Positions 2,512 through 46,611 of a stretch of 64,000 bases of DNA are shown here, piece after piece. The notes under the pieces were generated by a model, which saw only the letters and a program-made list of their open reading frames with translations, was not told the DNA's origin and made no database searches. The DNA comes from a virus. Its lineage: Duplodnaviria; Heunggongvirae; Uroviricota; Caudoviricetes. Positions within the stretch are counted from its first letter, which is position 1; each line of letters begins with the position of its first letter. The stretch lies in IMG/VR virus record IMGVR_UViG_3300043399_000676; one strand, given 5' to 3'. Position numbers and translations under genes: made by a program.

Positions 2512-2596
2512 GCCCCGGTGGCGAAATAGGTAGACGCGAGGGACTTAAAATCCCTTCCTGAAAGGGGTGCCGGTTCGAGTCCGGCCCGGGGCACCA
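2512..2596 (+). tRNA. tRNA-Leu (anticodon TAA)
   Basis: Cloverleaf by hand: acceptor GCCCCGG/CCGGGGC, anticodon loop CTTAAAA, long variable arm, T-arm GCCGG-TTCGAGT-CCGGC, encoded CCA. Confidence 0.9.
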
Positions 2597-2692
2597 TATT
2601 GAAGCACATTACTTGCCCGTCCGTAAACGACGAGGAAAACTACTGAAGAAACAGGTTCGAATCCTGGGGACTGGTAGTGTGTTTCAATATGG
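2594..2692 (+). ncRNA. structured spacer element, copy 1 (terminal helix CCATATTGAAGCACA / TGTGTTTCAATATGG)
   Basis: Long terminal inverted repeat pairing with G·U wobbles only in RNA; internal T-arm-like CAGGTTCGAATCCTG; starts at the CCA of tRNA-Leu. Confidence 0.4.
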
Positions 2693-2878
2693 TAAAAGAG
2701 TAATTAACTTTTACTATTATCGGAAGTCATGACTCCGATGATCCGTGGTAGTTTAAAGGTAAAACGCAGCGAGGCGTCGGTTCGATTCCGACCTAGGGGG
2801 TAATGAACTCACTAGTAGCTTAATTGGAATAGAGCGCAGCGAGATAAGGGTATCGTAGTCCCTTCCACAATGGATCAA

Positions 2879-2967
2879 CTATATTGAAGCACATTCAAAT
2901 AGTTCAAGGTAACAATGCCCGAAAGGGAGACGAACTGAAACTGTTACCAGAGTGTGTTTCAATATGG
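2879..2967 (+). ncRNA. structured spacer element, copy 2
   Basis: Same terminal arms ATATTGAAGCACAT…GTGTGTTTCAATATGG; different interior. Confidence 0.4.
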
Positions 2968-3033
2968 TTGAAGGGTTTGTTTTAGGAACTGGACTTAATG
3001 TCACATTAGAGCATCACTCTAGACTTCAACCAT
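2966..3033 (+). ncRNA. hairpin RNA (GGTTGAAG…CTTCAACC) ending in CCA
   Basis: 8-bp perfect stem closing a ~50-nt interior; 3' end …CTTCAACCA abuts element copy 3. Confidence 0.3.
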
Positions 3034-3136
3034 CATATTGAAGCACATTAGAACTTCTGCGGGCAGACATTTCCCAGTAAGCCTTAAGCTGAAAAGAGAC
3101 GCAACAGTTCGACTCTGCTAGTGTGTTTCAATATGG
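3033..3136 (+). ncRNA. structured spacer element, copy 3
   Basis: Terminal arms CATATTGAAGCACAT…TAGTGTGTTTCAATATGG; internal CAGTTCGACTCTG T-arm-like hairpin. Confidence 0.4.
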
Positions 3137-3247
3137 TCAGTAAGGGATAGATCGGAGCGAAACAAGGATGCTAGTCACATTCGATGTCGTGAAGGAATCA
3201 CCTGAAGTCGGGGCTGAAAATTTCGTGACTGAAATGATGTCTCGACA

Positions 3248-3327
3248 CCATATTCAAACACATTAAAGGGCGCCCCTAGTACCAATAGGGAATCAAGGGC
3301 GAGATTGCTGAGTGTGTTTGAATATGG
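3248..3327 (+). ncRNA. structured spacer element, copy 4 (compensatory C/G swap in the helix)
   Basis: Arms CCATATTCAAACACAT…GTGTGTTTGAATATGG; the G→C change on the 5' arm is matched by C→G on the 3' arm relative to copies 1-3. Confidence 0.45.
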
Positions 3328-3338
3328 TAAAATAGTTG

Positions 3339-3368
3339 TTGACAACAAGGCTAGATTAGAATATAATC
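3339..3368 (+). promoter_or_regulatory. sigma70 promoter for the downstream tRNA block
   Basis: TTGACA-18-TATAAT immediately upstream of tRNA-Met. Confidence 0.55.
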
Positions 3369-3390
3369 TTCTTCGTTGTTAAAGATTTTC

Positions 3391-3467
3391 GCTTCTGTAG
3401 CTCAATTGGTCAGAGCAGAGGTCTCATAAACCTTTGGTTGGGGGTTCAAGTCCCTTCGGAAGCACCA
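3391..3467 (+). tRNA. tRNA-Met or tRNA-Ile2 (anticodon CAT)
   Basis: Acceptor GCTTCTG/CGGAAGC, D-arm GCTC…GAGC, anticodon loop CTCATAA, T-loop TTCAAGT, CCA encoded. Confidence 0.85.
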
Positions 3468-3539
3468 AGTTTTAGGATTCTTTCAGCAAACTTCAAACTT
3501 TTACTTTATGAAAAAGAAAAAGGAATCCTGTAATAACAT

Positions 3540-3613
3540 GCGGGTATCGTATAGTGGTAATACCTCAGCCTTCCAAGCTGAAGCGAGGAGTTCGATTCTC
3601 CTTACCCGCTCCA
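3540..3613 (+). tRNA. tRNA-Gly (anticodon TCC)
   Basis: Acceptor GCGGGTA/TACCCGC, anticodon loop CTTCCAA, T-arm AGGAG-TTCGATT-CTCCT, CCA. Confidence 0.9.
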
Positions 3614-3619
3614 TAATAC

Positions 3620-3711
3620 GGAGACATGGCCGAGTGGCCTAAGGCAGCAGGTTGCTAACCTGTCGAGTCATGCAAATGGCTCCGTGAGTTCGAATCTCAC
3701 TGTCTCCGCCA
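3620..3711 (+). tRNA. tRNA-Ser (anticodon GCT)
   Basis: Acceptor GGAGACA/TGTCTCC, anticodon loop TTGCTAA, long variable arm, T-arm GTGAG-TTCGAAT-CTCAC, CCA. Confidence 0.9.
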
Positions 3712-3717
3712 AGTTTT

Positions 3718-3794
3718 CTGCCCGTAGCTCAGTTGGATAGAGCAACGGATTTCTAATCCGTTGGTCGGGGGTTCGAATCCCTCCGGGCAGGCCA
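3718..3794 (+). tRNA. tRNA-Arg (anticodon TCT)
   Basis: Acceptor CTGCCCG/CGGGCAG, D-arm GCTC-AGTTGGATA-GAGC, anticodon loop TTTCTAA, CCA. Confidence 0.9.
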
Positions 3795-3834
3795 AAAATA
3801 AATCGCACTATTTTTAGTGCATAAATAAAACATT

Positions 3835-3909
3835 GCCTCAATAGCACAGCGGTAGTGCAACGGTTTTGTAAACCGTAGGTCGGGAGTTCGAATCTCTCTT
3901 GAGGCACCA
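3835..3909 (+). tRNA. tRNA-Thr (anticodon TGT)
   Basis: Acceptor GCCTCAA/TTGAGGC, anticodon loop TTTGTAA, T-loop TTCGAAT, CCA. Confidence 0.9.
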
Positions 3910-18269: not shown

Positions 18270-18353
18270 GCCCCGGTGGTGGAATGGTAGACACGGTGGA
18301 CTCAAAATCCACTGCTGAAAGGCGTGAGGGTTCGAATCCCTCCTGGGGCACCA
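18270..18353 (+). tRNA. tRNA-Leu (anticodon CAA)
   Basis: Acceptor GCCCCGG/CTGGGGC, anticodon loop CTCAAAA, long variable arm, T-arm AGGG-TTCGAAT-CCCT, CCA. Confidence 0.9.
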
Positions 18354-22626: not shown

Positions 22627-22715
22627 TTTGTTGCCCAACTTTATTGATCAATGCGATAGTAGGAGATATAATATAATCTATTGCTGTATGAAGTGAATTG
22701 AAAGACGGGCAAGAC

Positions 22716-22743
22716 TCGGGTTCGACTCCCGACAGGTCCACCA
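22716..22743 (+). other. orphan tRNA 3' half (T-arm, acceptor 3' strand, CCA)
   Basis: TCGGG-TTCGACT-CCCGA then CAGGTCC-A-CCA; no matching 5' acceptor/D/anticodon arms upstream. Confidence 0.35.
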
Positions 22744-22766
22744 TAAGGAGATTGAATAAATACTAG

Positions 22767-23225
22767 ATGCGTATAAATGAAATACTAATCGAATCCACGA
22801 CTGATGATTTAGTATCTGAATTCTTAAAGAGTATATCACCCAAAGAGTTGAGATACTATTCTCGTAGAGATAACTGTGGTCCTGCCGCACTCCATATGAT
22901 AAGTTGGGCCAGAGAAAAAGGGTTAGAATTGCAAAGATACGGCGGTTATTTTGTAGCAGATAATGTTGTATACGACAAAGCGGACTTTACAAAAGAAATG
23001 AAGCGTGAGTTTTTACAACAAGGACTAGATTTTAATGATCCTCAAGAAAGAAAAGAGTTCATTGAATCAAATCCAGAATATAGTGAAGAATGGAAAAAAG
23101 TCCCTCACTACTGGTTACAAGATAAATCGGGAAATGTATATGATCCAACAGGATACATTCAGTTTGTTAATACTGGATTAGCAAAGGATTTAAACGCATC
23201 AAGATATTTAGGCAAGCCAAGTTAG
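22767..23225 (+). CDS. hypothetical protein
   Basis: RBS AAGGAG. Confidence 0.45.
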   Translation: MRINEILIESTTDDLVSEFLKSISPKELRYYSRRDNCGPAALHMISWAREKGLELQRYGGYFVADNVVYDKADFTKEMKREFLQQGLDFNDPQERKEFIESNPEYSEEWKKVPHYWLQDKSGNVYDPTGYIQFVNTGLAKDLNASRYLGKPS

Positions 23226-23515
23226 TCTTCTTATGATGGGCCTGCAATGGTATCGATTGACGGACGAGTAGAGGAATGGACAGCACGATAGGCGATGATC
23301 GTTAATCAAGCAAACTAAAGTAAATGCAAAAGCAAATACTACAACTGGTGAGTACAAAGTCGAAGTAAGCAAGTCTTTCCGTTTCGGAAAAGTTGCTGCC
23401 AACGATGACCGTGCTTTACTAGCAGCCTAAACAGCAAGCTAGACCGGGGTGGAGACAACCACCTGGCAACAGAATCAATCAGAAAAGGTCCGAAAGGACC
23501 TTTTCTTCCATAAAT

Positions 23516-39115: not shown

Positions 39116-39158
39116 ATGGAGTTTATGGTTGACATAAACTCCATTTCCATGTATAATG
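39116..39158 (+). promoter_or_regulatory. hairpin-embedded sigma70 promoter
   Basis: ATGGAGTTTATG…CATAAACTCCAT 12-bp inverted repeat flanking the -35 TTGACA; TATAAT at 39153. Confidence 0.45.
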
Positions 39159-39184
39159 TTTGTATTCTGAATAAGGAAATGCAA

Positions 39185-40075
39185 ATGGATAAGGACTCTC
39201 TGCGTCAATTCGTGCAAGACAACCCGAAGCTGGTTACGATGCGTGAAACCTCTACGCCTGGTCTTTTTGTGATCAAATATTCCAAGCGTGTTTTCTTCGA
39301 CAATCTTTGGAATGAATTCCTCGAAGAGTGTCGCGGCTTGATCGTTGACGCGGACTGGAACCCTGTTGTGCGTCCTTTCAAGAAGGTGTACAATTTCGGC
39401 GAGAACGGTGCTTCTTATGATCGTGATCGTATGGTGTATGTCGAGCGTAAAGTAAATGGCTTTATGGGTGCTGCGACCTATGTCTCGTCTGTTGATCAAG
39501 TTATCTACTCCACGACTGGTTCGCTGGATTCTGACTTCGCGGTGATCGTTCGTAAGTGGCTGTCTCCGTACGAACAGTTTTTCCGCTATCATCCGAATCG
39601 TACCTTTTTGTTTGAGGTGTGTGACAAGTCTGATCCGCATATCATCCCTGAAGTCGAAGGGGTGTATCTGATTGGTGCTCGTAATGCTGGAAAGTGGGAC
39701 AATGAAGTTCGTTGTGCGAACACTGATATGCTGGATTGGTATGCGAAATATATGGGCGGCGGAATTCTTCGTCCTTCGCACTCTGTTCAACGGTTTGGTG
39801 ATGTGGTTCAGCAAGTCAAGACTTGCTACCATGAAGGGTTCATTGTGTATCCGGTAGATTCTTGGGAGACTGATGCGGGACTGAAGATCAAGTCCAAGTA
39901 CTATCTGATTCAAAAGGCGTTGGCTCGTAAAAAGGATATCATGACCCTGAACAAGCAACTGCTGGATGAAGAATTCTATCCGCTCGTTGATCATCTCAAC
40001 GGAATGAAGGACGAGTTTAATGCTATGGACGAGCAGTCGCGTCTGGATTACATGCGTAAGTTTTTGCAAGCATGA
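39185..40075 (+). CDS. RNA ligase, Rnl1/Trl1-type (KxNG motif I)
   Basis: Motif I ERKVNGFMG (KxNG as in Trl1-type ligases); 296 aa; immediately downstream of pnk. Confidence 0.5.
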   Translation: MDKDSLRQFVQDNPKLVTMRETSTPGLFVIKYSKRVFFDNLWNEFLEECRGLIVDADWNPVVRPFKKVYNFGENGASYDRDRMVYVERKVNGFMGAATYVSSVDQVIYSTTGSLDSDFAVIVRKWLSPYEQFFRYHPNRTFLFEVCDKSDPHIIPEVEGVYLIGARNAGKWDNEVRCANTDMLDWYAKYMGGGILRPSHSVQRFGDVVQQVKTCYHEGFIVYPVDSWETDAGLKIKSKYYLIQKALARKKDIMTLNKQLLDEEFYPLVDHLNGMKDEFNAMDEQSRLDYMRKFLQA

Positions 40076-40232
40076 TCTATAAAGTAAAGATGCCCGAAGC
40101 ATATGCTAGGGTCGAGTGGTGCAAGAAACATCTGGGTACCTCTATTAGAGGTGAGAACTGGTGGAGACACAAAGGACATCTTTACTTTTGTAACGAAAAA
40201 GATTATACTTTCTATTTACTGAGGTGGAAGTA

Positions 40233-40889
40233 ATGGCAAGAGTTGAAGTTTGGAAGTGCGATCATTCTGGTAAACTTTTTGAAGATAGGAAAAGGTACGT
40301 TGCTCATCTTCGAAAGTTGGCGAGGGTGAATAGGTATGAAAGACGAGTTCAGTGCCTCAATGAAGAACGTGATGCGCTTATGACTACAATGGGAGATACG
40401 GTCAAGTACATGGACCAGCTTGTTCAGTTCATCAAAGACAACTGGAAGTGGTTTTTTTATAACGGGTTGCGGCACGAGCCTTTCAATCGTGAAAAGACTG
40501 AAGATTGGCATGAACTAGTGTCTTTGTCTTTTGAGCAGATGCGTTGGAACAATAATGCTAGTAACAGTCACGTTGCACCCAAAAATGGTGTTCTAAACTG
40601 GTCTAAAAAAGAAACCTTTCCCGATGGAACTCCTAAACCCACTGGATATCCTGGCTGGACCGGACAAATGAAAATATCAATCCGCGGTGACAAATACACC
40701 TATCGAGGAAAAGAAAAGTTCACTACCGGATTCGGTAGTCGCTATTTCACCGACACTCCAATTAAGACTGGTTCAGGAGGAGGTGGACCAGACGTATTTA
40801 ATTACGGGGTTACTCTTTTTGCTGATGACTTCCCTGCTATGGCAGAGCAGCGTGAAAAGGATCTCATCTGGGATAAGATAACTGCGTAA
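40233..40889 (+). CDS. hypothetical protein
   Basis: RBS GAGGTGGAAG then ATG; first gene before the paralogue array. Confidence 0.45.
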   Translation: MARVEVWKCDHSGKLFEDRKRYVAHLRKLARVNRYERRVQCLNEERDALMTTMGDTVKYMDQLVQFIKDNWKWFFYNGLRHEPFNREKTEDWHELVSLSFEQMRWNNNASNSHVAPKNGVLNWSKKETFPDGTPKPTGYPGWTGQMKISIRGDKYTYRGKEKFTTGFGSRYFTDTPIKTGSGGGGPDVFNYGVTLFADDFPAMAEQREKDLIWDKITA

Positions 40890-40890
40890 T

Positions 40891-41106
40891 ATGGATCTAA
40901 ACACTCTTCTTTATAGATTGCATGTCAAGTACTTGGGCTCAGTATGGGATGATGTCACGTTTAAGCATATGAGTGAAGATGTAAAAACCGTATTCCCGCA
41001 AATTAGACGAATTGAGTTTGATCGCACACGAATGTACCCTACAGTACTTGACATCGAATTTAATACCGAAGAAGATAAGATTTGGTTTTATCTGAAAAAT
41101 AAATGA
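40891..41106 (+). CDS. small paralogue array member 1/15
   Basis: Ends …WFYLKNK; the next gene overlaps by ATGA. Confidence 0.45.
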   Translation: MDLNTLLYRLHVKYLGSVWDDVTFKHMSEDVKTVFPQIRRIEFDRTRMYPTVLDIEFNTEEDKIWFYLKNK

Positions 41107-41372
41107 TTGTCAAAAAGAAATATGAAAACTCAGTTAATCTAGATGACCCCAATGGATACTGGGAGAACTTCTATGTTCATGTAGTGTCTGAACAGATTAT
41201 GCAAGCAGCAGGCAAGATGAATAGAATCCCGCCGAGTGTCCTGTATGAGGCGATTAACGATGCTTTGAAGCCATATAAGGCGAAGTTGGATAACGTCTTC
41301 ACCAACCAATACTTAACTGTGGTGTTTCAAGATGAAGCTGCGTATGCTTGGTTTAAACTGAAGTGGTCATGA
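41103..41372 (+). CDS. small paralogue array member 2/15 (…FKLKWS)
   Basis: ATGA coupling; C-terminal aromatic-L-K-W. Confidence 0.5.
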   Translation: MIVKKKYENSVNLDDPNGYWENFYVHVVSEQIMQAAGKMNRIPPSVLYEAINDALKPYKAKLDNVFTNQYLTVVFQDEAAYAWFKLKWS

Positions 41373-41548
41373 CTAAGGTTAGAATATCCTGTCCTATAAC
41401 CTGGTATAAGCAGTGCGAGTGGATTCAGAAAAACTGTAAAGGTTACATAGATGTCACTGAGTGGTCAGCTTGGAATATAGGATACGATGATATTTACTAC
41501 TATCTTAGTGATGAAGATGCTATAATCTTTTATTTGATGTGGTCGTGA
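41363..41548 (+). CDS. array member 3/15 (…FYLMWS)
   Basis: ATGA coupling. Confidence 0.5.
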   Translation: MVMTKVRISCPITWYKQCEWIQKNCKGYIDVTEWSAWNIGYDDIYYYLSDEDAIIFYLMWS

Positions 41549-41781
41549 AGAAAATAAATCTAAAATTTAGTCGAGCAAAATGGCATATCGCCGAAAGTGT
41601 TCTCCGCCCGAATTGGTTTTTTTCAGGTGAAGAAGCTCAAGAAAAAGTTAGATGGTGTCAAGAACAGTTCGGTCCTGTAACCTATCCACCTAATGGCTAT
41701 ACACGATGGTATGTTAGTGGGCTCGATGTTAGATTCCGTGACGAAAAAGATTACATTCTGTTTCTATTGAGGTGGACATGA
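41539..41781 (+). CDS. array member 4/15 (…FLLRWT)
   Basis: ATGA coupling; RW codons AGGTGG form the SD for the next ORF. Confidence 0.5.
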   Translation: MVVKKINLKFSRAKWHIAESVLRPNWFFSGEEAQEKVRWCQEQFGPVTYPPNGYTRWYVSGLDVRFRDEKDYILFLLRWT

Positions 41782-41963
41782 GCTACATCTTTAGAAGACC
41801 TGTTAACTCAGGTTTTAAAGAGACAGAAGAAATGACCAAGTGGGCTGTACAACATTGCCCGTCGTATATTGCCAACGATGTAGACCAGACGGGTGAATGG
41901 TGCTACCGTCTTTATTTTAGTGACGAGAAAGATTACCTTATGTTTGTGTTGAGGTGGGCATGA
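41772..41963 (+). CDS. array member 5/15 (…FVLRWA)
   Basis: ATGA coupling. Confidence 0.5.
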   Translation: MDMSYIFRRPVNSGFKETEEMTKWAVQHCPSYIANDVDQTGEWCYRLYFSDEKDYLMFVLRWA

Positions 41964-42343
41964 GTTATAATAGAGCAGCATTTTTTGGTCCAATGGATAC
42001 AGTTCTTAAAATGCGATTGAAATTGTTAGAAGAGTTTGGTACGATAGATACATTTTGGTGGAAGTTAGTACCTGGGGTAGAAATAGAAGTTAAATGGCCA
42101 AGGGGTGAGATAGTAATTGACGAATCAATGCCGCAATGGGATTGGACTGTAGGACCAAGTAAGTATATCGTAGAATCTGCTGACCCTAATGATCATTATC
42201 GCCCCGAACTGGAACGACTTGTAGGTACACAGAGATGGGATTGGGATTGGAAAATTAATCCAAACAATCTTGATAGACTTACAATAAAGTTTAGAAAGGG
42301 GAAAGCAAAGTATGCATCTTACTTTGCTTTGAAATGGACATGA
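41954..42343 (+). CDS. array member 6/15 (…FALKWT)
   Basis: ATGA coupling. Confidence 0.5.
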   Translation: MGMSYNRAAFFGPMDTVLKMRLKLLEEFGTIDTFWWKLVPGVEIEVKWPRGEIVIDESMPQWDWTVGPSKYIVESADPNDHYRPELERLVGTQRWDWDWKINPNNLDRLTIKFRKGKAKYASYFALKWT

Positions 42344-42594
42344 TACTTATAAAAGCAGGAGAAATATACTACAATACTCAGGTATATTTTCGCAAACATA
42401 TCTTAGATAGTCTTCCGAACGATGACAAAGTATGGGAAGCAGAATATAAAAAGTGGCTCAAGGATCAAGGAGCAGTTGTTATAAAACCTAAACGTCAATG
42501 TTTAACAACTGCACTTGGTGTAAGTCCATTTTATGATCATTTCGGTTTTGAAAATGATCATGATGCTGCTGTGTTTGTGTTGAGGTGGTCATGA
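42334..42594 (+). CDS. array member 7/15 (…FVLRWS)
   Basis: ATGA coupling. Confidence 0.5.
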   Translation: MDMILIKAGEIYYNTQVYFRKHILDSLPNDDKVWEAEYKKWLKDQGAVVIKPKRQCLTTALGVSPFYDHFGFENDHDAAVFVLRWS

Positions 42595-42836
42595 GTATTA
42601 AAGAGTATTTGAAAAAGAATCGAAACCAGCACTTGGGTGCTCTTAATTATAGAACTATTCTTATTCGACAAGGTTACCCTAATGTGTTGTTAGGTAATGA
42701 AGGCCATAAGAATTGGAAAGAAGTGCATCGATGGTGTAAAGAGCAATACGGAGAAGACCATTATACGTGGACTGGAAGTAGATTTTGGTTTGAGACAGAG
42801 CAAGATGCTACGTGGTTCGTAATGAGGTGGGCATGA
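42585..42836 (+). CDS. array member 8/15 (…FVMRWA)
   Basis: ATGA coupling. Confidence 0.5.
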   Translation: MVMSIKEYLKKNRNQHLGALNYRTILIRQGYPNVLLGNEGHKNWKEVHRWCKEQYGEDHYTWTGSRFWFETEQDATWFVMRWA

Positions 42837-43054
42837 ATGATATAACTAGAGTCTTTCCCAAAGGATGCACTGATTACACTATGATCGATGTTTCTGAAAA
42901 ACGAGATAGTAACTGGTTAACATGGGAATCAGAAATGTTACGATGGCTAACAGAATTTGACCACGACAGCTGGTTTGCATGGGAGAGACCTGCTAATAAA
43001 GTAATCTTTGAAAAAGAAGATATCGCTATTTTATTCGCTTTAAGGTGGTTATGA
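42833..43054 (+). CDS. array member 9/15 (…FALRWL); near-duplicate of member 15
   Basis: ATG at 42833 inside GGGCATGAATGA; about 80% identical to 44247..44453. Confidence 0.5.
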   Translation: MNDITRVFPKGCTDYTMIDVSEKRDSNWLTWESEMLRWLTEFDHDSWFAWERPANKVIFEKEDIAILFALRWL

Positions 43055-43227
43055 AGAAATATGTAATAGCGGTTGAAAGATGGGCTGACAGAGACAAGTT
43101 TGTTAAATGGTTGGAAGATAACTATGGGCCTGAACACATCCGATGGGGCGTTGAACAAGACTTTAATTTAGAAAACTTGTGGATGGACGAAGATATCTAT
43201 GTACTATATAAGTTAAAATGGAGTTAA
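43045..43227 (+). CDS. array member 10/15 (…YKLKWS)
   Basis: ATGA coupling. Confidence 0.5.
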   Translation: MVMKKYVIAVERWADRDKFVKWLEDNYGPEHIRWGVEQDFNLENLWMDEDIYVLYKLKWS

Positions 43228-43475
43228 AAATGGCTATTGCGTTTAACGAAATAACTCACTACGTTGAATTTGTAGACTATATTCCAGAGAATGCCAGCGA
43301 CTCTAAAAAAGTTGTGTTTAGGTGTTCAGGTGATCCTATCAAGATCATTAAATGGTGTCGTAGAAACTTTGGTGAGAGGGGAGACGGTTGGGACTTTACT
43401 GGTTCAGGCAAAAAGGTAGATATTATCATTTGGTCTAGCAGACTGATAACTATGTATGAACTATGGCAGAATTAA
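43218..43475 (+). CDS. array member 11/15 (…YELWQN)
   Basis: Overlapping start; divergent C-terminus. Confidence 0.45.
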   Translation: MELKMAIAFNEITHYVEFVDYIPENASDSKKVVFRCSGDPIKIIKWCRRNFGERGDGWDFTGSGKKVDIIIWSSRLITMYELWQN

Positions 43476-43790
43476 ATGTTAATCAAAAAACTAGACAAAC
43501 GAAATAAAGGTCACGAATACTTTAAGTACTACATCAAAACATCCTATCCAGTCCAAACAAAAGATCCGGACTACCATGAATTGAGAGCTTGGATGTGGCA
43601 AACCTGGGGACCTAGTAAAGAACTAGTAGACTGGATAGATGATGAAAATGAAAAGCACAGGCTAGTAACATATAGAAAAAACATCAGTTGTCAAAATGAA
43701 CATTGGTGTTGGCAAAATGATGACTATTACAGTAGGTTGTACCTCACGGGAGATGACGAATTAGTTCTGTTTAAATTAAGATGGCAATGA
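43476..43790 (+). CDS. array member 12/15 (…FKLRWQ)
   Basis: TAAATG adjacency. Confidence 0.5.
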   Translation: MLIKKLDKRNKGHEYFKYYIKTSYPVQTKDPDYHELRAWMWQTWGPSKELVDWIDDENEKHRLVTYRKNISCQNEHWCWQNDDYYSRLYLTGDDELVLFKLRWQ

Positions 43791-44071
43791 TTTTAACCAG
43801 GCAAGAGTTCATCGATATGTGGAACTCTTATCGTATTGGTCTAGGAGATTATGATAGTCCTCTTTGGACATTGGAAGTAACTAAGAATTTCCAATGCCAT
43901 TGGTTCGTGTGCGTTCGACCAATAAACGATATGGAAACTCATAATCAATGGTGTTCGGATCATTGCAAAGGTAAAATGCTATGTTATTCTTCTGACGATG
44001 AAAACAATGAAGAATGGTACGGGTTCACAGAGAAAGATGACATTATCTGGTGGCTACTAAAATGGGGTTAA
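43787..44071 (+). CDS. array member 13/15 (…WLLKWG)
   Basis: ATGA coupling. Confidence 0.5.
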   Translation: MILTRQEFIDMWNSYRIGLGDYDSPLWTLEVTKNFQCHWFVCVRPINDMETHNQWCSDHCKGKMLCYSSDDENNEEWYGFTEKDDIIWWLLKWG

Positions 44072-44250
44072 AGGTAAACTTGCCATATGATCCAACTTGG
44101 CAAGCAGTAGCGTGGGCAAAAAAGAACTGTCCTAGCTATGTAACCTGTTTCATTACTGAGGACAAGGTTAAAATGACTCAGAAACCTGTTATAGCTTATG
44201 TGTTCTCTGACGAAAAAGATGCCACTTTTTTCGCGCTGAGGTGGTCATGA
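44062..44250 (+). CDS. array member 14/15 (…FALRWS)
   Basis: ATG overlaps the upstream stop. Confidence 0.5.
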   Translation: MGLKVNLPYDPTWQAVAWAKKNCPSYVTCFITEDKVKMTQKPVIAYVFSDEKDATFFALRWS

Positions 44251-44453
44251 TTGATATAACTAGTGTCTTCCCAAAAGGATGTACAGATTACACTGTGATT
44301 GATGTTTCGGAAACACGAAGTAATAACCGAGAAATGTTGCGATGGTTAAGAGAATTTGACCATGACAGTTGGTTTGCATGGGAGAGACCTGACAATAAAG
44401 TAATCTTTGAAAAAGAAGATATTGCTGTGCTATTCACATTAAGGTGGTTATGA
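44247..44453 (+). CDS. array member 15/15 (…FTLRWL)
   Basis: ATGA coupling; near-duplicate of member 9. Confidence 0.5.
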   Translation: MIDITSVFPKGCTDYTVIDVSETRSNNREMLRWLREFDHDSWFAWERPDNKVIFEKEDIAVLFTLRWL

Positions 44454-44494
44454 ACGTTGTTTAGATGGTTTAGTAAGCGGTTCAAAATAGTACT

Positions 44495-44541
44495 GGTTTC
44501 CTCGAAGGTTCTAGCTAAATAAAAGAACCTTCGAGGAAACC
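44495..44541 (+). promoter_or_regulatory. 18-bp perfect hairpin sequestering the SD of the downstream 688-aa gene
   Basis: GGTTTCCTCGAAGGTTCT…AGAACCTTCGAGGAAACC; GAGGAAA at 44533-44539 sits in the 3' arm and the ATG follows at 44545. Confidence 0.6.
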
Positions 44542-44544
44542 TTC

Positions 44545-46611
44545 ATGCCATTAAACCCATCGATACCGACCCCAGCCGAAACAATAGTTAACATTAACGA
44601 AGATCCGGCGTTAGTTAAATTATACGCAAAACAAGCCGAAACGGTAGTAAACACAACTACAAAATCGTCGGCCAAATTTGCAGTTCCTGCACCAACTGTT
44701 ACAATGGTAACAAAACAGGTGTTTGTTAATAACATAGTTAATAATCAGGCAACAGGAAACATAAATGAACTTCAGTTCAAATCATCAACTGGATTCAGTA
44801 GTGATCCAGAGTTATCCTATAATCCAAACCTAAATGAGTTAACTGTGGAAGGTAATATTGAAGCAACTGCTATACTTACAGATAACTATTTTTATAGTAA
44901 TGGTGTTTCAATATTTTCAACATTAGGATCAGGAAACACTGGTGACATCACGTTCGATGCTACAACTATATCCGCACCTGATGAGAGTACTATTACTATA
45001 GAGAGTAAATTTGAAAATGTAGTTAAATCTAAGTTGGTGTTAAATCCAGAGTATGCTATAGCTAAACTCGAATCTAAATCTACGGACCAAAATACAACTT
45101 TCTTCAGCGGTGACGGATTCTGGGTTACTGCTAATTGGATTGTGAATCAGTATGGTCGAGGAGAGTTAGTATTTACAGGTTCTGAACAACTTTACAGCTT
45201 TTTAAATAGTTCACCTTCTTGGAACAGCGGAGAGAACAAGCGTTTTAGCTGGAATAGCGGCTCTCCTCTACAGTTTAGTGGGTGGGGATACGGTGGCGGA
45301 ACGCTGAATATAGATGTGGGAACTGAACTACTACCTCCTGTAGATCCTACTGAAATTACAGAAATTTCTTTTATTTGGGACAATGTATCTCGTGTGTCAG
45401 TTGACAGTAATGATTATCAAGAATTACAAATTCAAGCTCGCGGAATGAATATTGAAATTGACAGCACTAGCGACGTTAACATCGAAGCCGGTGACGATCT
45501 AAGACTAACAGGCAATGATGTTGTTAGTATTCGCAATAGATCCGTTTCTGACCCAATTACTATTGTTACAAACTACAACGGTGCATCTCCAACATGGAGT
45601 TTTGAAGCAGATGGTGCCTTAACATTACCCAACGGCAGCTTCATCAGAGAAACCGTAGTGACAGGGAATCCTACTATTGAATTAGAACCTGCCAATGCTG
45701 AAGGAGCTAGTCAGAAACTAGTCATCAAAGGTGGTGGCCCAGTTTTCTCTAACACAGAAAACGGTATCACTGTGGAAGTCTTTAATACCATAACTTATGC
45801 TCAAGGCGATACTGTCTATATGGGAGTTAGCACAGGACTAGCTCAAGGCACTACACTTTACTGGTGGATTGATAACTATAGCCCAGGAGCACAGTTTACT
45901 CCGGACAACGGAGAACTAACTATTAATGAGTTCGGTGGTGCATCATTTAACTTTGTAGTCAATGATGATACTATTCCATTCCGTGTTTATGTAGCAGATA
46001 CATTATACAACGCCTACATTAATAATCTCGGTGCGGTTAGCGTTGACATGAATGCAGGTGCGGTGGATAACAGCCTACACTTACATTTGACTACTGGTGA
46101 TTTAACTGCGACCAGCATTTTCTTAGGTACAGACGATCACAACGTTAGAACAAAGCCCAACGGTAATATAGAAGTTACAGTCTACAATTCCGAGGACGGA
46201 GTTTCAAAAGCTTGGAACTTCGGTAACGATGCCAAGTTGACATTCCCTTTACCAGTTAACAATGATATTCCATCCATAGAGTTCCCAGTTCCCAATGGCA
46301 GTGCTGGAATTGGTGTTAGTCCAAATGGATTTGATATTAGAGTCTTAGATAGCTACTGGACATTTAGCCCTCTACTTACAGGTGAAGGGACTGTTCCTGC
46401 TAAGATAACATTCCCGGACGGAACTCAACAAGTTACTGCTTGGGCAGGTGGTCGAGTAGTTAATATTCCAAATTCTAGTACAGGTGCTGCAGGTGACAAG
46501 TCAGGAGACATTTCATTTGATTCTACCTTCATGTATTACTGTGTAGCTGACTATACTGATGGATTATCAAATATATGGAAGCGTATAGCTTGGAGTGCTG
46601 ATACTTGGTAA
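44545..46611 (+). CDS. large fibre/adhesin-like structural protein
   Basis: 688 aa rich in S/T/N/G with repeated β-strand-like segments; C-terminal aromatic tail. Confidence 0.4.
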   Translation: MPLNPSIPTPAETIVNINEDPALVKLYAKQAETVVNTTTKSSAKFAVPAPTVTMVTKQVFVNNIVNNQATGNINELQFKSSTGFSSDPELSYNPNLNELTVEGNIEATAILTDNYFYSNGVSIFSTLGSGNTGDITFDATTISAPDESTITIESKFENVVKSKLVLNPEYAIAKLESKSTDQNTTFFSGDGFWVTANWIVNQYGRGELVFTGSEQLYSFLNSSPSWNSGENKRFSWNSGSPLQFSGWGYGGGTLNIDVGTELLPPVDPTEITEISFIWDNVSRVSVDSNDYQELQIQARGMNIEIDSTSDVNIEAGDDLRLTGNDVVSIRNRSVSDPITIVTNYNGASPTWSFEADGALTLPNGSFIRETVVTGNPTIELEPANAEGASQKLVIKGGGPVFSNTENGITVEVFNTITYAQGDTVYMGVSTGLAQGTTLYWWIDNYSPGAQFTPDNGELTINEFGGASFNFVVNDDTIPFRVYVADTLYNAYINNLGAVSVDMNAGAVDNSLHLHLTTGDLTATSIFLGTDDHNVRTKPNGNIEVTVYNSEDGVSKAWNFGNDAKLTFPLPVNNDIPSIEFPVPNGSAGIGVSPNGFDIRVLDSYWTFSPLLTGEGTVPAKITFPDGTQQVTAWAGGRVVNIPNSSTGAAGDKSGDISFDSTFMYYCVADYTDGLSNIWKRIAWSADTW

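Follow-up and report, generated by a model that had tools for sequence, protein, structure and literature searches.

A tandem array of small phage genes whose conserved C-terminal codons appear to form the ribosome-binding site of the following gene

A 64,000-nucleotide stretch of DNA (termed here the window) from the IMG/VR virus record IMGVR_UViG_3300043399_000676, a member of the Caudoviricetes, contains an array of 15 small genes at positions 40891–44453. The genes are designated m1 to m15 in their order along the + strand, and a related gene found further upstream is termed m0. Nearly all encode a C-terminal domain of about 50 amino acids that closes with Leu-Arg-Trp or a close variant, and the proteins are referred to as the LRW-tail family. 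The codons for this tail evidently also serve as the Shine-Dalgarno sequence of the next gene. In kind the arrangement is a known one, i.e. coupled small early phage genes with the ribosome-binding site (RBS) inside the upstream gene. It is unusual in being carried through an entire paralogous family, and in that the family is large, found only in phages and uncharacterised. The complete interpretation proposed here, of an early operon, a phage-restricted family, RBS signals in tail codons, old subfamilies and small binding modules, is given a probability of roughly 0.6.

The 15 open reading frames (ORFs) lie back to back on the + strand and encode 58–127 amino acids when ATG or GTG starts are chosen to give stop/start overlaps. 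A preliminary description of this DNA, generated by a model from the sequence letters, gave 60–129 amino acids; the tandem arrangement of chained small paralogues is borne out by ORF calls, junctions and independent gene calls. Independent gene calls made on a separate assembly of a near-identical phage place the boundaries of m1–m9 (71, 89, 59, 78, 61, 127, 84, 81 and 73 amino acids) identically. At 11 of the 14 internal junctions stop and start overlap by 4 nt (10 ATGA and one GTGA), so that the reading frame moves by −1 along the array. The remaining junctions comprise gaps of 2 and 0 nt and one overlap of 10 nt. Overlaps of −4 or −1 nt, as in translationally coupled pairs, are also present upstream, where an RNA-ligase-like gene overlaps m0 by 4 nt (ATGA) and m0 overlaps a 218-codon ORF by 1 nt. 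The tail motif [LM][RK]W followed by 0–2 residues and a stop occurs 13 times in the block, compared with 30 occurrences of [LM][RK]W in all six frames of the whole window. Twelve of the 13 belong to m1–m15, the exceptions among the array proteins being m3 (LMWS), m11 (ELWQN) and m1 (YLKNK). The opposite strand has no competing long ORFs along the array. Two antisense ORFs, of 94 amino acids (42874–43158, −) opposite m9/m10 and 65 amino acids (44288–44485, −) opposite m15, resemble each other only because both fall within the m9/m15 duplicate, and nothing indicates that they are genes.

The junctions have the consensus TTG AGG TGG TCA TGA, which places an RBS, G-AGG-TGG-TC, within the last sense codons of the upstream gene. 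The sequence G-AGG-TG is complementary to the usual 3′ end of 16S rRNA, and a G-U pair could extend the match through GTC. GAGGTGG stops 2 nt short of the ATG, and its GAGG core 5 nt short of it; the preliminary description named GAGGTGG correctly, but its distance of 4–5 nt had to be revised. In the window, the terminal Arg is encoded by AGG in eight of nine cases. AGG accounts for 10% of the Arg codons of other genes and for 12% of those within the array genes (binomial p = 9e-8, or 8e-7 with the m9/m15 duplicate counted once).

The same codons were followed in 219 unique homologues, 189 of which overlap the next start (156 at −4 nt and 33 at −1 nt). Where an Arg tail overlaps the following start, the codon is AGG in 149 of 175 cases, as against one of 13 where no start lies within 12 nt downstream (Fisher p = 1e-8); the AGG share of internal Arg codons of the same genes is 8.5%. 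Leu is likewise biased, with TTG at 102 of 140 ATGA junctions and at 16% of Leu codons in other window genes. The 16 homologues that have no start within 12 nt nevertheless keep R/K-W, and Arg in these, apart from the one AGG, is encoded by CGA, AGA or CGT. Since R/K-W persists without AGG where nothing follows, Leu-Arg-Trp is read as a protein constraint, with the mRNA signal residing only in codon choice. Thus the suggestion that the terminal codons form the Shine-Dalgarno sequence of the next gene is upheld, with codon usage showing selection among synonymous codons, in favour of AGG at the Arg and NNG at the Leu. The companion suggestion, that the protein motif is partly an mRNA signal, holds for the codons chosen and fails for the amino-acid motif. 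Some CGA tails make an alternative RBS from the Trp codon and the codon after it (TGG AGA TAG TT ATG, giving GGAG), as is seen in m10. In effect, the homologues form a quantitative natural experiment in which selection on the protein can be told apart from selection on the mRNA at the same codons. Gene callers, models of translational coupling and the reading of conserved C-terminal motifs in compact genomes can all make use of the result.

Location of the RBS inside the upstream gene is a general feature of overlapping gene pairs, and it matters for reinitiation in most of the Escherichia coli pairs tested (Huber et al., 2019; PMC6728339). The ATGA and TGATG termination-reinitiation pairs of that study share with the array the −4 and −1 nt overlaps and the RBS in the 3′ end of the upstream coding sequence, and on these grounds coupled translation would be expected here as well. 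The array differs in that the arrangement runs through a whole paralogous family, a conserved C-terminal tripeptide supplies the RBS, and one 15-nt junction recurs hundreds of times; coupling in the array is read from the sequence.

The window also contains a tRNA cluster (2512–3909 and 18270–18353, + strand) that includes tRNA-Leu(TAA), tRNA-Leu(CAA) and tRNA-Arg(TCT). The TTR Leu and AGR Arg codons that these tRNAs read are those enriched at the array junctions. Rfam shows an additional weak tRNA at 2742–2800.

Several lines of evidence place the array proteins in one family. Single-sequence searches connect m0, m3, m4, m5, m8, m14, m9 and m15. An iterated profile confined to the 628 ORFs of the window finds 12 members at E<1e-3 and m12 at 0.003, with zero matches outside the block. 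Similarity extends over about 50 residues and is not limited to the tail: W-[CLA]-x-E-x-[FC]-G ... W ... [FIV]-x-F-x-x-E-K-D-[AY]-x-x-F-x-L-[RK]-W-x. With the family defined as a C-terminal domain of about 50 amino acids of the form W(helix 1)...W...F-x-x-E-x-D-x-x-x-F-x-L-[RK]-W-x-stop, the profile places m0, m2–m5, m7–m10 and m13–m15 within it, and m6, m11 and m12 enter through orthologues together with weak profile matches. Four members, m6, m11, m12 and m13, are divergent; they are counted as family because their full-length orthologues (37–65% identity), which end in W-x tails, sit in the arrays of other phages. Assignment of m6 to the ‘INEIGGGD’ subfamily was dropped, as BLAST puts the m6 orthologues in a different group. 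In m1, the pattern IEFNTEEDKIWFYLKNK fits the family but the Trp is absent, and the sole homologues are orthologues with 76–85% identity that end in YLKN[KR]. As m1 lacks both the Trp and statistical support, 14 of the 15 genes first proposed as paralogues are retained, and m0, which had been overlooked, is added.

Across the homologues, exactly one residue follows the Trp in 204 of 221 members. Three Trp, two Phe, one Leu, an E-x-D helix cap and the Arg/Lys make up the highly conserved columns. It should be noted that the larger iterated profile (332 members) was built from stop-to-stop ORFs and partly learned the upstream junction (‘VEVV’), and its weak E-values were not relied on alone.

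The LRW-tail family appears to be large, restricted to phages and without a curated name. None of the window members has a profile match below E = 0.01 in Pfam-A, PHROGs v4, NCBIfam 20 or the PDB sequences, in agreement with the initial impression that the family is not a recognised one. PHROGs covers many known anti-defence proteins and gave no match, although no search aimed at anti-defence proteins was made. Among 50,697 GenBank phage records, tblastn with m4 and m5 and megablast with the array block gave no match; no description of the family was found in the literature, and Rfam has no RNA family matching the block. On the other hand, a profile search of 1.84 billion cluster representatives (50% identity) returned 973 proteins at E<=1e-3. 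In the best 150 of these, which include two clearly unrelated repeat proteins, the domain is mostly at, or a few residues from, the C-terminus. A DNA pattern for DEKDY..F.LRW that is neutral for the Leu and Arg codons occurs in 47 stretches of IMG/VR viral contigs and has zero matches in 185,579 bacterial and archaeal genomes. The 47 loci contain 247 ORFs that match the starting profile and, after iteration, 332 unique members, with arrays of up to 16 genes per locus; one source record carries a freshwater label. Alignment and profile searches thus describe one paralogous family that is large in metagenomes and absent from curated resources. With about a thousand clusters at 50% identity and up to 16 copies per genome, it is a target for Pfam and PHROG curation and for functional screens.

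In one of these loci (L003, 3858–4181) a lone family gene with an extension resembling a C-terminal motif of the Gp23 capsid protein lies between genes for a sugar epimerase and a DegT-type aminotransferase. It stands alone with ATGA overlaps on both sides, which indicates that the family also occurs as singletons within unrelated operons.

The window comes from a large, uncultured T4-like phage and encodes NrdA, NrdB, nicotinamide phosphoribosyltransferase, rIIA and two RNA ligases; the phage contig is 338,587 bp and has no close relative among sequenced phages. Transcription of the unit that includes the array probably starts at a consensus promoter at 39129 (Table 1). The start of the RNA-ligase-like gene was placed at 39179 or 39185, right behind this promoter. 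The 218-codon ORF has no Pfam or PHROG match; three other loci have orthologues of it close to their LRW arrays, with identity of up to 41% (L034). The interior of the array contains no strong promoter, and scans for terminators and promoters give nothing above shuffled expectation. A perfect hairpin directly after m15 likely marks the 3′ boundary of the unit. From the promoter, the gene chain, the lack of internal promoters and terminators and the hairpin, the array is taken to form the distal portion of a single early operon with 18 genes.

Table 1. Features of the proposed transcription unit. Positions refer to the window.
Feature	Position	Strand	Remarks
Sigma-70-type promoter	39129..39157	+	Perfect TTGACA-17-TATAAT; the only promoter with at least 11/12 matches between 38290 and 46619
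RNA-ligase-like gene (T4 gp63/Rnl1-type)	39185..40075	+	PHROG 562, E = 5.5e-45; first gene of the unit
m0	40072..40233	+	53 aa, ends YLLRWK; CTG AGG TGG AAG TAATG gives RBS and 1-nt overlap for the next gene; orthologue in L007 with 69% identity
218-aa ORF	40233..40889	+	Between m0 and m1; outside the LRW family; Gly-rich SGGGG stretch
m1	40891..41106	+	71 aa, ends WFYLKNK; family-like pattern IEFNTEEDKIWFYL without Trp; membership without statistical support
m2	41103..41372	+	89 aa, ends FKLKWS; family profile matches C-terminal part only
m3	41369..41548	+	59 aa, ends YLMWS; start of m4 is the GTG of a GTGA overlap
m4	41545..41781	+	78 aa, ‘KFSRAKW...WC.EQFGP’ subfamily, ends LLRWT; junction TTGAGGTGGACATGA
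m5	41778..41963	+	61 aa, ‘NCPSYI.ND’ subfamily; modelled member (beta-alpha-beta-beta-alpha, pLDDT 90.8)
m6	41960..42343	+	127 aa, ends FALKWT; divergent subfamily; orthologue ends x-[RQM]-W-x
m7	42340..42594	+	84 aa, ends FVLRWS
m8	42591..42836	+	81 aa, ends FVMRWA
m9	42833..43054	+	73 aa, ends FALRWL; paralogue of m15
m10	43051..43227	+	58 aa, ends YKLKWS; TGG AGT TAA AA ATG gives a GGAG RBS for m11
m11	43230..43475	+	81 aa, ends MYELWQN; divergent subfamily without Arg; orthologues 40–65% identical in 7 loci, ending YE[LM]W[QK]x
m12	43476..43790	+	104 aa, ends FKLRWQ, Arg is AGA; orthologues in L024 and L001
m13	43787..44071	+	94 aa, ends WLLKWG; Lys-Trp codons (aaATGg) form the m14 start, giving a 10-nt overlap
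m14	44062..44250	+	62 aa, ends FALRWS; ‘NCPSYV’ motif; related to m5
m15	44247..44453	+	68 aa, ends FTLRWL; last array gene; m9 duplicate, repeat begins ~30 nt before the start codon
Perfect 18-bp hairpin	44495..44541	+	Directly after the array; fold z = −6.0; no T-run behind

The hairpin has a second property. The GAGGAAA in its 3′ arm is the RBS of a 688-codon ORF with its start at 44545, and TAAATA lies in the loop. In T4, read-through early transcripts hide the RBS of a late gene, and the hairpin may be a similar arrangement. The 688-codon ORF (44545–46611, +) has no PHROG match and is rich in Ser, Thr, Asn and Gly; it could encode a fibre or other structural protein.

The whole window has 28 sigma-70-type promoters (at least 11/12 matches, all with 17-nt spacers) on the + strand and zero on the − strand. 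Examples on the + strand are at 844, 3339, 5150, 5702, 9522, 11241, 15353, 15685, 34473, 38290, 39129, 46619, 53485 and 55090. Several precede an identical leader of about 25 nt, AGCTTCATACACTGAGAAAACGGAG, and this looks like a repeated promoter-plus-leader cassette.

Comparison can be made with the clusters of small non-essential early genes of T4-type phages and with host-takeover modules such as SPO1 genes 37–60. The genes of those clusters are mostly mutually unrelated. The array is similar in having many small, packed genes downstream of strong, putatively early host-type promoters, and in lying in a variable part of a T4-like genome. It differs in that 15 of the 18 genes of the unit (16 with m1) belong to one family, which has no match to T4 or SPO1 protein families in PHROGs or Pfam.

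In the proposed mechanism, host RNA polymerase would transcribe the unit early, from the promoter at 39129 through the RNA-ligase-like gene, m0, the 218-codon ORF and m1–m15 to the hairpin at 44495. Fifteen genes of the unit (m0 and m2–m15, m1 being doubtful) encode members of the one phage-restricted family. The genes are chained by ATGA or TAATG overlaps, with each downstream RBS written in the last sense codons of the preceding gene. Ribosomes that end one gene would reinitiate on the next, and the whole protein set would be made together, early in infection, from a single mRNA. The products could form a kit of small protein-binding or adaptor modules, each with its own host or phage partner, that would act early in host takeover or counter-defence.

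Structural predictions bear on this last step. AlphaFold2 models m5 as beta-alpha-beta-beta-alpha with a pLDDT of 90.8. The domain of P0014, from the m4-like orthologue group of another phage, is predicted with the same topology (pLDDT 85–94), so that two independently modelled subfamilies are covered. The predicted LRW core is therefore a truncated ferredoxin-like domain of about 50 residues at the extreme C-terminus. Apart from the E-x-D cap, the conserved residues look like hydrophobic core positions, while most other positions of the domain and the N-terminal extensions vary between subfamilies. Structural relatives include UniProt entries with BFVD models such as A0A6J5LK55 and A0A6J5L7H3, listed as ‘Uncharacterized protein [uncultured Caudovirales phage]’. 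These match the LRW domain in fold and size (template modelling (TM) scores of 0.7–0.8, up to 27% identity) and are probably true family members, although the entries are without annotation.

The tentative proposal that LRW-tail proteins are small protein-binding or adaptor modules acting early in infection is based on several features. The family is phage-restricted, lies in a probably early unit and has many old subfamilies side by side. In addition, the conserved residues look structural, the remainder and the N-terminal extensions vary, and the truncated fold would leave an open sheet edge. A possible role in host takeover or anti-defence is suggested by the putative early-gene position. 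Another possibility, with a small chance of being correct, is that the proteins are nucleic-acid- or ligand-binding regulators and not protein binders, with the fold used as in ACT, RAM, RRM and papillomavirus E2 domains. The best structural neighbours are indeed ACT, RRM, the NikR C-domain, the Lrp/AsnC RAM domain and E2 DNA-binding domains. However, the LRW domain is missing the fourth strand of the ferredoxin-like alpha+beta sandwiches represented by ACT, RAM, RRM and the NikR C-domain. There is no sequence similarity to these, the family has no conserved ligand- or RNA-binding motifs, and the structural scores are all generic.

How the array was constructed is a separate question. The 3′ junction of about 15–48 nt (...TTGAGGTGGTCATGA) might be a recombination patch that allows in-register duplication, deletion and shuffling of cassettes, the genes themselves being largely dispensable cargo. 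An identical 15-mer occurs at 39 of 140 ATGA junctions across phages, the window has a family of 48-nt direct repeats at gene ends, subfamily order varies between phages, and the m9/m15 repeat begins within the conserved 3′ end of the preceding gene. Yet the protein and RBS constraints fully explain the conservation of the junction, and no recombinase, inverted repeat or attC-like structure is present. Nucleotide identity beyond the 15-mer is just 60–85%, and purifying selection shows that the genes are used. A cassette origin is thus doubtful; as it concerns array construction, it is compatible with the explanation favoured here.

The array members are evidently old subfamilies that are common to many phages and reshuffled in order. 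Twelve of the 16 members have a best full-length match in other phage loci (36–69% identity, E 1e-13 to 1e-38) that far exceeds the best paralogue in the window, where paralogues are mostly 20–35% identical, and subfamily order differs among phages. As orthologues are closer than paralogues, the subfamilies predate the divergence of these phages. The m9/m15 pair is evidently the only lineage-specific duplicate. Over 68 aligned codons the two share 84% identity (78% if a 5-residue indel is included), with a synonymous divergence (dS) of 0.52, a nonsynonymous divergence (dN) of 0.086 and dN/dS of 0.17. These values indicate that the duplication is not very recent and that both copies are maintained, under purifying selection.

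The preliminary description had called this pair about 80% identical and recent, and the family diversifying. The duplicate stands; its recent date does not, and neither the dN/dS of the pair nor the predominance of orthologues over paralogues agrees with diversification. The tandem members, the low identity of paralogues and the one pair with 78–84% identity might suggest an arms-race family, recently copied in this phage and diversifying rapidly under positive selection. This is unlikely, as most members have much better full-length matches in other phages than in the window, the one young pair already has a dS of 0.52 at a low dN/dS, and dN/dS is about 0.15–0.4 in orthologue comparisons of another subfamily.

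It is very unlikely that LRW conservation is mainly an mRNA-level artefact, with the tail kept to spell a Shine-Dalgarno sequence and not for the protein. The GAGGTGG just ahead of almost every downstream ATG and the extreme AGG and TTG bias would suit such a view. The 16 homologues that retain R/K-W with no downstream start, where AGG drops to one of 13 Arg codons, argue against it, as do 26 tails of overlapping genes with non-AGG Arg codons and the location of Trp, Leu and Phe, which are 89–97% conserved, in the second helix of a confidently predicted fold. That the array consists of chance ORFs in an AT-rich spacer or of degenerate repeats has next to no likelihood, since small ORF size alone speaks for it and orthologues in dozens of assemblies, dN/dS far below 1, confident structure predictions, identical independent gene calls and the lack of competing long ORFs on the other strand speak against it.

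Some points weigh against the interpretation as a whole. The homologue set was gathered with a single DNA pattern (DEKDY..F.LRW) and is biased to phages that have the m4-like subfamily, and its members are phylogenetically non-independent. The division of residues into core and surface was taken from sequence pattern and secondary structure, not from coordinates. The designation of the unit as early derives solely from consensus promoter matches. Lastly, m1 may not belong to the family.

The most specific hint at a function comes from fusions in related phages. In most other phages the m4-like subfamily has an in-frame N-terminal extension, a string of short segments that copy the motifs most conserved in phage hallmark proteins. 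These mosaics were found in related loci (L008–L038; proteins P0014, P0020, P0077, P0100, P0101, P0135 and P0152), and in the fetched loci nearly every short ORF with such a motif ends in an LRW tail. The m4 of the window (41545–41781) has no mosaic extension, and no window member matches PF07068.

One motif is that of the T4 major capsid protein Gp23 (‘...ILMPMIR..P.LLAQ.ILGVQPMTG.VGEIFTM’), with matches to Pfam PF07068 at E = 1e-11, 2e-8 and 9e-7, and by tblastn to capsid genes of T4-like Rhizobium phages at 6e-5. A C-terminal Gp23 motif, ‘FFYAPYIPL’, is found in some m4-like members. Likeness to Gp23 consists of an N-terminal motif copy of about 40 residues; the copies are fragments of 25–52 residues and have no capsid fold. 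The Gp23-like piece has a dN/dS of about 0.15 with dS saturated; it is therefore translated and selected as a peptide, and is no recently copied DNA. A copy of the catalytic loop of ribonucleotide reductase (‘SNLCxEIxLP’), ‘YDSNLCKEIILPTKP’, is identical at 12 of 18 positions to the NrdA of the window at residue 443. A polymerase-B motif ‘K...NS.YG’ (Pfam E = 8e-4) is weakly supported, and a P-loop ‘YQ...GRQTGKS’ is weakly assigned to terminase or DnaB. Identification of the P-loop fragment as terminase was not upheld, as pairwise comparison gives it weak support (E ~ 0.05) and the Pfam matches weakly favour DnaB.

The mosaics may point to an undescribed form of molecular mimicry. The LRW domain might be a scaffold for early-expressed mimics, with the motifs acting as decoys that occupy host immune sensors, or factors of competing phages, by which conserved phage proteins are recognised, although this is improbable. 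If it were so, the plain members in the window could, as a speculation, be the same scaffold aimed at other partners. These motifs are also classic insertion sites of inteins and homing endonucleases, and an alternative for the mosaics is a role in conflicts between mobile elements.

Elsewhere in the window, a region at 22682–23430 (+) overlaps a 152-codon ORF (22767–23225). ARAGORN reported no tmRNA there, and Rfam gives a permuted (two-piece) tmRNA of 749 nt, with 65 bits against a gathering score of 47.

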